Assembly: GCF_003334315.1 (NCBI RefSeq)
Contig: NZ_QOWR01000004.1
Reading direction: 5' to 3' (one strand)
Origin: Escherichia coli
GTDB taxonomy: Bacteria > Pseudomonadota > Gammaproteobacteria > Enterobacterales > Enterobacteriaceae
Length of the DNA: 64,000 nt
The notes below the pieces were generated by a model. That model was not told the DNA's origin. It worked only from the letters and a program-made list of their open reading frames with translations, and did not search any database. Numbering within the stretch: the first letter of the stretch is position 1; each line of letters opens with the position of its first letter. This document shows, piece after piece, positions 22,739 through 27,333 of this stretch. The translations under genes were made by a program, and so were the position numbers.

Positions 22739-23356
22739 ATGGCACAGCTATATTTCTACTATTCCGCAATGAATGCGGGTAAGTCTACAGCATTGTTGCA
22801 ATCTTCATACAATTACCAGGAACGCGGCATGCGCACTGTCGTATATACGGCAGAAATTGATGATCGCTTTGGTGCCGGGAAAGTCAGTTCGCGTATAGGT
22901 TTGTCATCGCCTGCAAAATTATTTAACCAAAATTCATCATTATTTGATGAGATTCGTGCGGAACATGAACAGCAGGCAATTCATTGCGTACTGGTTGATG
23001 AATGCCAGTTTTTAACCAGACAACAAGTATATGAATTATCGGAGGTTGTCGATCAACTCGATATACCCGTACTTTGTTATGGTTTACGTACCGATTTTCG
23101 AGGTGAATTATTTATTGGCAGCCAATACTTACTGGCATGGTCCGACAAACTGGTTGAATTAAAAACCATCTGTTTTTGTGGCCGTAAAGCAAGCATGGTG
23201 CTGCGTCTTGATCAAGCAGGCAGACCTTATAACGAAGGTGAGCAGGTGGTAATTGGTGGTAATGAACGATACGTTTCTGTATGCCGTAAACACTATAAAG
23301 AGGCGTTACAAGTCGACTCATTAACGGCTATTCAGGAAAGGCATCGCCACGATTAA
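22739..23356 (+). CDS. tdk: thymidine kinase
   Basis: 205-aa ORF with P-loop MNAGKST. Confidence 0.96.
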
Positions 23357-23370
23357 TAAGAATTTCTTTA

Positions 23371-23405
23371 CTGACAGGGTGAGCAGGGCACTTTTATCCT
23401 GTCAG
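23371..23405 (+). terminator. hairpin downstream of tdk (CTGACAGG..CCTGTCAG)
   Basis: 8-bp stem with long loop followed by TTCGTTTTA; weak terminator candidate. Confidence 0.3.
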
Positions 23406-23637
23406 TTCGTTTTACGCACTTCTTCCGGGCTATATACCCTTCTCGGCAGTTTTTTAACGCCGCTATACGCCTCACAGGGCTCTTAAGCACCGACGTTGAC
23501 TTGTGACCTGTAAAGTACAATATCCCTGTGTTTAGGCGTTATACATCGTCGCAAATATGATGAAGGCTAATGCTGTCGGTTTATGGAAAAGTTGCTTTGG
23601 GTAAACAAAAAATACGGCCCCAGAAGGGCAATGCCGT

Positions 23638-24534
23638 TCACTTAAGAGGAGCGGCACTATGTTTCACAGGATAACGGGTTTTTGATATCTTAACCGACCT
23701 CGGCCTTGATGGTCGGGGGCGTTTTGTTATGAACACCACTTCCAGAGCACCCCGAAGATGCTCCAGTCGTTTCGGGATGGTCCCTGGTGACGCCGTGTTT
23801 CCCAGCTCTATCATTTCTGATGCGATATTCTTCCACGCAGGCAGTAGCCAGTGGCGGTTACAACCCTTCTGGTTCAGCGTCAGCAGCAGGTCTTCGCTGT
23901 AAAAAAGTTTATCAAACAACGTAATAGAGTTATCCGGGATGGTGGCGAGCATGGAGTGGGCCAGCACAGTTTCGCTCTGCCGGTAAGGTGCGGTCACGGC
24001 ATTCAGCAGAATGTGACTTCCCAGGTTCATTAAGGCCACCAGACGCATAACCGGGTAGGCGTTCTGCCGCTTAGTGGATGTGTTGGCAGACCCATAATAT
24101 TCACGCAGCTCGGGTTTATCAGGTGTCCTGAACTGTGCGCCATCAATGGCAAAAAGTTGCAGGCCGTGCCAGTCATCCTTCAGGTAACGTTCCGCGCCCC
24201 TGTCTGTGCGGTCTGGCGGAAGAGCCATTCCACTGGGGCGGCCCCCACGCGCTGACGCGCCTGGGTGACAGCGCTGCGGGCCAGCAGGTTCATCCCCGCT
24301 TCGCCATCCGCGCTCAGGTTCAGACGGCGAACAACATCGGTAATTGGCTCATTGCACCACCATCCAGATAACCATGTCCCCCGGTAAACGACGGCGGCGA
24401 ACGGTCGCATGAGCAGAAAGCGTCAGGCAGTGTTGTATCCACTCGGTGGGAAGGTGTTCTGCAAATAGTTGTGCAGAGGGCGGAGGCATAAGCGGATGGT
24501 CACTGAAATCGAGCAGATCATTGAGAAGTGGCAT
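23638..24534 (-). pseudogene. insZ: IS4-family transposase pseudogene (three frameshifted fragments, C-terminus missing)
   Basis: consecutive minus ORFs 24349..24534, 24180..24410 and 23638..24228 in different frames, each resembling successive parts of the IS4 transposase (e.g. TVRRRRLPGDMVIWMVV, SAVTQARQRVGAAPVEWLFRQTAQ, LFAIDGAQFRTPD); gene name from memory of K-12 annotation. Confidence 0.7.
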
Positions 24535-24617
24535 AAGAAAACGGCTCCCTGTTGTGGAAGCCGTTATAGTGCCTCAGTTTAAGGATCGGTCAACTAATCC
24601 TTAACTGATCGGCATTG
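23640..24617 (-). mobile_element. truncated IS4-family insertion sequence remnant (left end present, right end missing)
   Basis: IS4-type terminal repeat (reverse complement AATGCCGATCAGTTAAGGATTAGTTGACCGATCC) at about 24580-24617, about 80 bp before the transposase-like start; transposase similarity ends near 23640, no second inverted repeat seen. Confidence 0.75.
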
Positions 24618-24657
24618 CCCAGAAGGGGCCGTTTATGTTGCCAGACAGCGCTACTGA

Positions 24658-27333
24658 TTAAGCGGATTTTTTCGCTTTTTTCTCAGCTTTAGCCGGAGCA
24701 GCTTCTTTCTTCGCTGCAGTTTCACCTTCTACATAATCACGACCGTAGTAGGTATCCAGCAGAATCTGTTTCAGCTCGGAGATCAGCGGGTAACGCGGGT
24801 TAGCGCCGGTGCACTGGTCATCGAATGCATCTTCAGACAGTTTATCCACGTTCGCCAGGAAGTCTGCTTCCTGAACGCCAGCTTCACGGATAGATTTCGG
24901 AATACCCAGTTCAGCTTTCAGCGTTTCCAGCCATGCCAGCAGTTTCTCGATCTTAGCAGCAGTACGGTCGCCCGGTGCGCTCAGACCCAAGTGGTCGGCA
25001 ATTTCAGCATAACGACGGCGAGCCTGCGGACGGTCATACTGGCTGAATGCAGTCTGCTTGGTCGGGTTGTCGTTCGCATTGTAGCGAATAACGTTACAAA
25101 TCAGCAGGGCGTTTGCCAGACCGTGCGGAATATGGAACTGGGAACCCAGTTTGTGCGCCATTGAGTGACATACACCCAGGAAGGCGTTCGCAAACGCGAT
25201 ACCCGCGATAGTCGCTGCACTGTGAACACGTTCACGCGCTACCGGATTTTTAGACCCTTCGTGGTAGGACGCTGGCAGATATTCTTTCAGCAGTTTCAGT
25301 GCCTGCAGAGCCTGACCATCAGAGAACTCAGATGCCAGTACAGAAACATAAGCTTCCATGGCGTGAGTTACTGCGTCCAGACCACCGAAAGCACACAGGG
25401 ACTTCGGCATGTCCATAACCAGGTTGGCGTCGACAATCGCCATATCCGGAGTCAGCGCATAGTCTGCCAGCGGATATTTCTGACCAGTAGCGTCGTCAGT
25501 TACAACCGCAAACGGAGTGACTTCAGAACCTGTACCAGAAGTGGTGGTGACAGCGATCATTTTCGCTTTCACGCCCATTTTCGGGAACTTGTAGATACGT
25601 TTACGGATATCCATAAAGCGCAGCGCCAGCTCTTCGAAGTGAGTTTCCGGATGTTCGTACATAACCCACATGATCTTCGCGGCGTCCATCGGGGAACCAC
25701 CACCCAGCGCGATAATCACGTCTGGTTTGAAGGAGTTTGCCAGTTCTGCACCTTTACGAACGATGCTCAGGGTCGGGTCCGCTTCTACTTCGAAGAAGAC
25801 TTCAGTTTCAACGCCTGCTGCTTTCAGTACGGAAGTGATCTGATCAGCATAACCATTGTTGAACAGGAAGCGGTCAGTCACGATGAGCGCACGTTTGTGG
25901 CCATCAGTAATCACTTCATCCAGCGCGATTGGCAGGGAGCCACGGCGGAAGTAGATAGATTTCGGAAGTTTGTGCCACAACATGTTTTCAGCTCGCTTAG
26001 CAACGGTTTTCTTGTTGATCAGGTGTTTCGGACCAACGTTTTCAGAGATGGAGTTACCACCCCAAGAACCACAACCCAGAGTCAGGGAAGGTGCGAGTTT
26101 GAAGTTATACAGGTCACCGATACCACCCTGAGACGCTGGGGTGTTAATCAGGATACGCGCCGTTTTCATTTTCTGACCGAAGTAAGAAACGCGAGCCGGT
26201 TGGTTATCCTGGTCAGTGTACAGGCAAGAGGTATGACCGATACCGCCCATAGCAACCAGTTTCTCTGCTTTTTCTACCGCGTCTTCGAAATCTTTAGCGC
26301 GGTACATTGCCAGAGTCGGGGACAGTTTTTCATGTGCGAACGGTTCGCTTTCATCAACAACGGTCACTTCACCGATCAGAATCTTGGTGTTTTCTGGTAC
26401 AGAGAAGCCTGCCAGTTCAGCAATTTTATAGGCTGGCTGACCAACGATAGCCGCGTTCAGCGCACCGTTTTTCAGGATAACATCCTGAACAGCTTTCAGC
26501 TCTTTACCCTGCAACAGATAGCCGCCGTGGGTTGCAAAACGTTCACGTACAGCGTCATAAACAGAGTCAACAACAACAACAGACTGTTCAGAAGCACAGA
26601 TTACGCCGTTGTCGAAGGTTTTGGACATCAGTACAGATGCAACTGCACGTTTGATATCAGCAGTTTCATCGATAACAACTGGAGTGTTGCCCGCGCCTAC
26701 ACCGATAGCTGGTTTACCGGAGCTGTATGCGGCTTTAACCATGCCCGGACCACCAGTCGCGAGGATCAGGTTGATGTCTGGGTGGTGCATCAGTGCGTTA
26801 GACAGTTCAACAGAAGGTTGATCGATCCAGCCGATCAGATCTTTCGGAGCACCGGCAGCGATAGCAGCCTGCAGAACGATATCAGCCGCTTTGTTGGTGG
26901 CATCTTTTGCACGCGGGTGCGGGGAGAAGATAATGGCGTTACGGGTCTTCAGACTGATCAGCGATTTGAAGATAGCAGTTGAAGTCGGGTTAGTGGTCGG
27001 AACGATACCGCAAATAATACCGATTGGTTCAGCGATAGTGATGGTACCAAAAGTGTCGTCTTCAGACAGAACACCACAGGTTTTTTCATCTTTATAGGCG
27101 TTGTAGATATATTCAGAAGCAAAGTGGTTTTTGATCACTTTATCTTCGACGATACCCATGCCGGATTCGGCAACGGCCATTTTCGCGAGTGGGATTCGAG
27201 CATCTGCAGCAGCCAGAGCGGCGGCGCGGAAGATTTTGTCTACTTGCTCTTGAGTGAAACTGGCATATTCACGCTGGGCTTTTTTTACACGCTCTACGAG
27301 TGCGTTAAGTTCAGCGACATTAGTAACAGCCAT
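24658..27333 (-). CDS. adhE: bifunctional acetaldehyde-CoA / alcohol dehydrogenase
   Basis: 891-aa [45 protein letters not shown]... Confidence 0.97.

Follow-up and report, generated by a model that had tools for sequence, protein, structure and literature searches.

The insertion sequences (ISs) most similar to the one considered here belong to the IS4 subgroup of the IS4 family. As delimited by De Palmenaer et al. 2008 (PMC2266710), members of this subgroup are 1400-1650 bp long, carry a single transposase ORF, generate target site duplications (TSDs) of 10-13 bp and end in the signature -AATR--------WTW----. Strong specificity for the arms of the target has been reported in the literature for the subgroup. 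Homing to extragenic palindromes is also known from IS1397, ISKpn1, IS621 and ISRm22, the last of which is itself an IS4-family member (PMC1525189). A major difference lies in the kind of palindrome. REP-targeting ISs use the repeated REP family, whereas the targets described below are unique terminator-like hairpins with A/T-rich arms, and the insertions are centred on the hairpin dyad with a duplication of 10-14 bp.

The locus itself is not new. Escherichia coli K-12 has an IS relic named ISZ'/insZ in Table 3 of PMC3032704, and PMC3465305 refers to "the pseudogene insZ between tdk and adhE". The published descriptions of insZ/ISZ' that we found treat it as a pseudogene or an IS only; intact ends, a TSD and a split or replaced adhE terminator are absent from them. 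We analyzed a 64-kb stretch of E. coli DNA (the window) with the gene order galU-hns-tdk-[IS]-adhE-ychE, which is the K-12-type arrangement. The 1.6 kb around the element is 100% identical to many E. coli chromosomes, including K-12 derivatives, and RefSeq labels the locus in these chromosomes as an "IS4 family transposase, frameshifted" pseudogene. The element in the window is therefore the already-annotated K-12 pseudogene, without any difference in sequence. What we add are its corrected boundaries, the split of the adhE terminator together with an IS-borne replacement, and a parallel insertion of IS4 at the same site. The explanation that best covers all of this, and that we hold with considerable confidence, is that an IS4-subgroup element inserted into the adhE terminator hairpin, decayed internally and left an IS-borne terminator in place of the one it had split.

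Ends, target duplication and family of ISZ'

ISZ' has two ends (Table 1). An earlier note, made from the sequence alone, had placed an IS4-type terminal inverted repeat (IR) about 40 bp downstream of the adhE stop, and this repeat is present, ending at 24617, 40 bp from 24658. The same note held that there was no second inverted repeat, that the element was 3'-truncated and that it spanned 23640-24617. None of these three statements stands. The IR pattern AATGCCNNTCANTTAAG has exactly two matches in the window, in inverted orientation at 23630-23646 (+) and 24600-24616 (-), compared with ~0.02 expected by chance, and the true span is 23629-24617. Directly outside these ends lies a perfect 10-bp direct repeat. 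The transposase runs on the minus strand, in the same direction as adhE.

Table 1. Coordinates in the window of ISZ', its neighbors and associated features
Feature	Position	Strand	Basis or remark
tdk	22739-23356	+	
Left junction chimeric bulged hairpin	23612-23638		half ancestral stem plus IS end; ancestral UAUUUUUUG tract kept for the minus strand
TSD, left copy, CCCAGAAGGG	23619-23628		perfect 10-bp direct repeat
ISZ' element, complete-ended, internally deleted IS4-subgroup IS, 989 bp	23629-24617	-	end-to-end alignment with the 1430-bp relative
Terminal IR, transposase-C-terminal end, CAATGCCGTTCACTTAAG	23629-23646	+	18 bp identical to the end of the full-length relative
insZ transposase pseudogene, 897 bp	23638-24534	-	tblastn against the 445-aa transposase, block alignment, ORF list
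Second IS-borne terminator-like hairpin, inward-facing, 8-bp stem, followed by GCGUUUUGUU	23698-23718	+	terminator scan, fold
Junction of the ~423-bp in-frame deletion	23814-23827		exact position ambiguous, short TTTCTG..CGCGATA microhomology
Site of the 1-bp deletion (original frame restored)	24200-24201		alignment with the relative
Site of the 17-bp deletion (frameshift)	24354-24355		alignment with the relative
IS-borne terminator-like hairpin, 10-bp stem, followed by UUUUCUUAU	24540-24565	-	terminator scan, fold, Term-seq
Terminal IR, transposase-N-terminal end, CAATGCCGATCAGTTAAG on the minus strand	24600-24617	-	40 bp from the adhE stop
Right junction chimeric bulged hairpin, beside adhE	24609-24631		on the minus strand followed by AUCAGUUAAGG, no U-tract
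TSD, right copy, CCCAGAAGGG	24618-24627		perfect 10-bp direct repeat
adhE	24658-27333	-	stop at 24658; ychE next

A full-length relative provides the reference for these limits. It is a 1430-bp element carried by an E. coli plasmid (L004:1501-2930); an 11-bp duplication flanks it, and it encodes a transposase of 445 aa; NZ_CP062888.1 33002-34431, with transposase WP_029488891.1, is an example of this full-length ISZ type. The transposase has the Pfam domains Nterm_IS4 and DDE_Tnp_1 and scores 263 bits against NCBIfam transpos_IS4_1, for which the cutoff is 115. Members of its protein cluster are named "IS4 family transposase" only. The window copy aligns with the relative from end to end at 94.6% identity over aligned bases, and the 441 bp that it is missing are all internal. 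At either end the terminal 18 bp match exactly, the TSDs are similar in length (10-11 bp) and the targets are of the same type. The full-length element retains an intact transposase with the Y(2)R(3)E(6)K motif.

The alternative is that ISZ' is a one-ended, 3'-truncated IS4 fragment that lost its distal part and second IR. Its attraction is that protein similarity ends at ~23640, but it ends there because this is where the transposase stop codon lies. The alternative also fails to account for the identity of the last 18 bp with the end of the full-length element, for an IR pattern that occurs only at the two ends, and for the direct repeat immediately beyond them. Removing the element and one repeat, moreover, yields the empty site found in 2198 genomes. 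We regard a truncated fragment as barely conceivable. ISZ' is a real, ordinary IS relic with both ends in place.

IS4-family similarity, on which the earlier note had staked its reading, is clear. A 196-aa ORF in the window matches NCBIfam NF033592 transpos_IS4_1 with E=3e-23. Both ends carry the subgroup signature, with AATG at positions 2-5 and TTA at positions 14-16, and the 10-bp perfect direct repeat, present as a single copy in the empty site, lies within the subgroup range of TSD lengths. The copy departs from the subgroup description in size, being 989 bp long with a broken ORF where the full-length relative has 1430 bp and one 445-aa ORF, and it lacks an intact DDE triad with Y(2)R(3)E(6)K. 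The window copy is a relic of an IS4-subgroup member, not a functional member.

ISZ' is also not an iso-form of canonical IS4 (insG, 1426 bp). The two resemble each other in their Nterm_IS4 plus DDE architecture and in their -AATR-type ends. They differ in that transposase identity is only 39%, megablast cannot align the DNA and the IRs are distinct (TAATGCCAGTCAGTTAAG in IS4 versus CAATGCCGTTCACTTAAG in ISZ'). Because of this low identity to IS4 InsG, the ISZ type is a separate IS species within the IS4 subgroup.

Internal lesions and the history of the copy

Three deletions separate insZ from the intact gene. Residues 1-60 are read in frame 0 (24534-24355). The 17-bp deletion then shifts the frame for residues 66-117 (24354-24201), and the 1-bp deletion returns it to frame 0 for residues 118-244 and 386-445 (24200-23641). 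The gap between the last two blocks is the ~423-bp deletion, whose exact junction is ambiguous because of the short microhomology on its flanks. It removes approximately residues 245-385, including Y311-K325 (YHSRWEIEVGFRNLK), the YREK motif with the catalytic E. The earlier note had described transposase-like ORF fragments on the minus strand, three of them in different frames. The three ORFs are there (24349-24534, 24180-24410 and 23638-24228), but tblastn places the coding blocks in two frames only, because the two small deletions, of 17 bp and 1 bp, add up to 18 and the 423-bp deletion preserves the frame.

Through these lesions ISZ' is dead: it can no longer encode a transposase, but neither end is truncated. 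This agrees with the earlier description of a decayed IS4-family element between tdk and adhE that is incapable of moving by itself. That description had attributed the immobility to frameshift and 3'-truncation. Immobility holds, but its cause is internal deletion with loss of the catalytic E/YREK region, not truncation.

We infer that the copy decayed in situ, after insertion. A microhomology-flanked, in-frame deletion of ~423 bp would have removed the YREK/catalytic-E region, and the 17-bp and 1-bp deletions would have broken the frame, leaving a 989-bp relic with both ends. The order of events could instead be reversed, with a copy that was already deleted and non-autonomous being mobilized in trans by a full-length ISZ-type transposase. 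In favor of this, both IRs are intact, full-length ISZ-type copies still circulate in 162 E. coli genomes, on chromosomes and plasmids, and E. coli ATCC 8739 carries the relic together with a near-full-length copy (a 1429-bp frameshifted pseudogene). Against it, the deletion pattern was seen at no second locus, and a relic near nanS in O157 has different deletions. The median is one matching place per genome, and ISZ' thus does not behave as a MITE-like derivative, for which several copies with the same deletion would lie at different loci. A variant allele (L019) at the same locus carries all three lesions, consistent with one old event. Arrival of an already deleted copy is thus improbable in our view. 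The absence of the shared lesions from any other locus, together with the three lesions in L019, leads us to favor, as far as sequence can tell, a single old history of decay in place.

The empty site and the preference for hairpin targets

Allele counts were taken over 5426 complete E. coli genomes. The empty site is present in 2198 of these, ISZ' in 1884, and a decayed canonical IS4 at the same site in 1130; the remaining ~214 genomes fall outside these three allele classes. Comparison with strains that lack the insertion, which the earlier note had proposed, recovers the ancestral tdk-adhE junction. The empty site reads AAAAAATACGGCCCCAGAAGGGGCCGTTTAT and contains one copy of CCCAGAAGGG (L002), and precise removal of ISZ' restores the sequence ...CGGCCCCAGAAGGGGCCG.... 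Situated 40 bp past the adhE stop, the empty site forms a hairpin that has a perfect 8-bp GC stem, a loop of AGAA and, flanks included, a fold energy of -18 to -20 kcal/mol; UAUUUUUUGUUU follows it on the adhE strand. By these features, the ancestral hairpin was evidently an intrinsic terminator of adhE.

An IS4-subgroup element would have entered the loop of this hairpin by DDE cut-and-paste transposition, and staggered cuts centered on the hairpin dyad would have produced the 10-bp duplication. The third allele repeats this arrangement with a different element. It is a canonical IS4 reduced to 1145 bp by internal deletion, shares 97-98% identity with insG copies and occupies the loop of the same hairpin, oriented like ISZ'. 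Its 12-bp TSD, CCCCAGAAGGGG, is concentric with that of ISZ'. Element and duplication length both differ between the alleles, and two separate insertion events therefore took place. ISZ' and canonical IS4 thus hit the adhE hairpin independently, in different E. coli lineages.

Two IS4-type elements in one hairpin could reflect coincidence or a recombination hotspot, and the concern is fair in that only a single shared site has been studied in depth. The wider sample comprises 13 distinct insertion sites (7 of the ISZ type and 6 of IS4), which were reconstructed and hand-picked from match lists with their flanks unseen. Most of the 13 are hairpins with GC stems, an A-rich left arm and a T-rich right arm, with a TSD of 10-14 bp on the dyad; at the canonical IS4 sites sampled, TSDs are 11-14 bp. 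Hairpin targets lie downstream of ssrA, raiA, gnd, glgP and a terD-family gene, and between copM and silE. Across the 13 sites, dyad-symmetric complementary pairs about the TSD center average 8.6 of 16, versus 4.0 ± 1.75 at random window positions. At least 10 complementary pairs are found in 6 of the 13 sites versus 0.2% of random positions. The mean fold energy of the 44-nt target is -15.6 kcal/mol, versus -8.0 kcal/mol at random. Three sites show little dyad symmetry (umuD, pE105 and the K-12 IS4 site), and two of the 13 insertions are inside genes.

Coincidence or a hotspot is highly improbable against this background. At adhE, the 10- and 12-bp TSDs share one dyad as their center, dyad-centered hairpins also make up most of the other 11 sites, and strong target-arm specificity is on record for the subgroup. 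The preference for hairpin targets is real, and the choice of the adhE site was not chance. The preference is not absolute, because three sites have little symmetry and two are inside genes. IS4-subgroup transposases would accordingly favor, without being confined to, palindromes that resemble terminators and are A-rich in the left arm and T-rich in the right. A target consensus AAA-N20-TTT was reportedly put forward for IS4 in 1984 and is said to be repeated in a review of 1998; the target arms seen here fit it. Our search of the literature for IS4 in combination with terminator stem-loops found nothing relevant. The adhE locus provides a clean natural example of IS4-type, dyad-centered targeting of terminator hairpins.

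Probable terminators at the adhE 3' end

The insertion would have split the adhE terminator, and an inward-facing hairpin carried by the IS next to adhE would replace it. Each junction now forms a chimeric bulged hairpin of -10 to -12 kcal/mol. On the left, the fold is -10 to -11 kcal/mol versus -18 to -20 for the ancestral hairpin. Chimeric hairpins of this kind could in principle arise by inversion between two hairpins; the empty-site allele rules this out, as it differs by a simple insertion with a TSD. On the adhE strand, ~50 nt beyond the right junction hairpin and just inside the IS end, lies the IS-borne hairpin at 24565-24540. It has 6 GC pairs in its 10-bp stem, a 6-nt loop and a fold energy of -18.3 kcal/mol with flanks.

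Published Term-seq data place an RNA end at this hairpin. For MG1655, a strong minus-strand 3' end is listed at 1,295,324 in all three growth conditions, with scores of ~51,000-100,000 (PMC7815308, supplementary file 1). This position is window 24536, which falls in the U-tract, 122 nt beyond the adhE stop codon. The printed 61-nt Term-seq sequence equals window 24526-24586 on the minus strand, and the placement is thus confirmed independently of the offset. The offset (MG1655 minus window) we take to be 1,270,788, from the presumed MG1655 coordinates of adhE and insZ. The hairpin at 24565-24540 therefore combines the features of an intrinsic terminator, a GC-rich stem-loop and a U-tract, with an in vivo RNA 3' end inside the U-tract. 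The authors classed the end as "orphan" and did not assign it to adhE (PMC7815308); it lies >50 nt past adhE, and the insZ pseudogene was evidently left out of their gene count.

Read most simply, these data have K-12 adhE mRNA ending at this IS-derived terminator, if we take the RNA to be adhE mRNA and the termination to be intrinsic. The end at 24536 could also be a product of processing or of exonuclease stalling, or belong to a short RNA initiated between adhE and the hairpin. Term-seq alone cannot separate termination from 3'-5' trimming back to a hairpin, and the "orphan" listing also speaks for this alternative. The details nevertheless argue for termination. A U-tract comes straight after the hairpin and contains the 3' end, which is the signature of an intrinsic terminator, and the stretch from the adhE stop to the hairpin holds no promoter-like site. 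PMC7815308 lists no other minus-strand 3' end, either at the junction hairpins or over the following ~900 nt. Among the supplementary files searched, including the Rho-termination table, the coordinate prefix occurs only in the 3'-end file. A processed or short RNA thus seems to us unlikely. Termination of adhE mRNA at the IS-borne hairpin would also bear out one suggestion of the earlier note, that the element may contribute a terminator for adhE.

Under this reading, the K-12 adhE 3' UTR measures 122 nt, with IS-derived sequence at its end, and this explains an "orphan" 3' end of high signal past a very highly expressed fermentation gene. The ancestral adhE terminator survives in ~40% of E. 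coli genomes and ~21% have a different, IS4-derived 3' end, a difference that is relevant to engineering adhE expression or comparing it across strains. These details turn the long-annotated K-12 pseudogene into an internally deleted IS that has both ends and sits in a defined target, but they do not make it a different kind of object.

On the other side of the element, tdk has its own terminator, a hairpin (23371-23410) situated 205 bp upstream of the element, and a Term-seq 3' end maps to window 23410. Dependence of tdk on the split hairpin is thereby ruled out, and the influence on tdk that the earlier note had envisaged is unlikely. The note had also raised outward promoter activity. A consensus scan gave four weak 9/12 sites, none of them outward-facing at either end, and such activity finds no backing in the sequence.

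The element has a second hairpin, at its other end, that also faces inward (Table 1). No Term-seq 3' end is listed there, consistent with little plus-strand transcription past the tdk terminator. An Rfam scan of 23200-24800 returned nothing above threshold; one sub-threshold match to ctRNA_p42d (33 versus 50 bits) falls on an IS hairpin, and we read it as generic resemblance to a terminator hairpin.

Canonical IS4 shares this design. It has hairpins with T-tracts at equivalent end positions, in unrelated sequence, and like ISZ' it combines inward-facing, terminator-like end hairpins with hairpin or palindromic targets, among them the same adhE hairpin in other lineages. In K-12's own IS4, a Term-seq 3' end follows right after the left-IR hairpin (4,502,127 +, three conditions; PMC7815308). 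The ISZ' hairpin probably serves the element by stopping or silencing transcripts that read into it. In IS10 and IS50, which are IS4-family elements, read-in transcripts are stopped or silenced.

More tentatively, the IS4 subgroup might be viewed as terminator hunters, an idea to which we give somewhat less than even weight. Symmetric cuts around terminator dyads, combined with terminators facing inward from the ends, would let an insertion make good the terminator that it destroys and so be near-neutral, and the relics would persist as the adhE terminator. If so, ISZ' and IS4 relics persist in more than half of sequenced E. coli as a working terminator of adhE. The IS-borne hairpin beside adhE (24540-24565) has one further feature: the 3' half of its stem contains a Shine-Dalgarno-like GGGAG ten bases before the transposase ATG at 24534.

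Canonical IS4 at the adhE hairpin and its terminator activity

The adhE hairpin, the GC-stem 40 bp past the adhE stop that receives ISZ' in the window, is occupied in about 1130 E. coli genomes by an internally deleted copy of canonical IS4 (insG), a different IS species. The type strain ATCC 11775 (H43) likewise carries a deleted IS4 there. At this site the adhE-proximal hairpin and T-tract of the deleted IS4 are still whole. In canonical IS4, the left IR itself forms a 10-bp hairpin, with CTCTTTTT after it (L013:302-345, the K-12 insG locus). Published Term-seq places an RNA 3' end at this K-12 hairpin (4,502,127, plus strand) in three conditions (PMC7815308). The IS4 end itself therefore acts as an inward-facing terminator.

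Features at the tdk-adhE interval and comparison loci
Feature	Position	Strand	Setting	Remarks
tdk terminator hairpin	window 23371-23410	+	immediately 3' of tdk stop codon
Deleted canonical IS4	L003:829-1973		adhE hairpin, E. coli AH19K002	1145 bp; 12-bp TSD
Second ISZ-type relic	L005:1524-2296		adjoining nanS, E. coli O157:H7	deletion set unlike ISZ'
Frameshifted ISZ-type copy	L008 / L010		copM-silE intergenic hairpin, ATCC 8739 and SEC470/H10407	1429 bp
Full-length ISZ-type element	L006 / L007		ssrA-ypjA intergenic, terminator-like hairpin target	TSD CACAGATGTG

Other ISZ-type copies in E. coli

Relatives of ISZ' occur at other loci as well. The O157:H7 relic is annotated as 'transposase domain-containing protein, frameshifted', and the tdk-adhE interval of O157:H7 is the empty allele. 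ATCC 8739 (Crooks) carries the ISZ' allele at tdk-adhE (H57) besides its copM-silE copy, whereas Table 3 of PMC3032704 lists an ISZ' copy number of 0 for Crooks. The ssrA-ypjA insertion, identical between two unrelated isolates, lies downstream of ssrA, the tmRNA gene, about 130 bp from its annotated end.

The tdk-adhE interval around and within ISZ'

Term-seq records a plus-strand 3' end at MG1655 1,294,198, equal to window 23410 in the tdk hairpin (PMC7815308). This terminator is separated from the site of the IS insertion by about 205 bp of non-coding DNA that carries no annotation.

One strain (H1; NZ_CM136176.1, 1428205-1430871) has a tdk-adhE interval that exceeds the K-12 one by about 1.07 kb, and the annotation beneath the match includes an IS903B-family transposase. 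Together, the extra length and this annotation point to a secondary IS insertion within or beside ISZ'.

The terminator-like hairpin borne by ISZ' matches Rfam ctRNA_p42d over window 24531-24567 (minus strand) at 33.4 bits (E=4e-5), below the gathering cut-off of 50 bits. This match most likely reflects a generic likeness to a terminator stem-loop.
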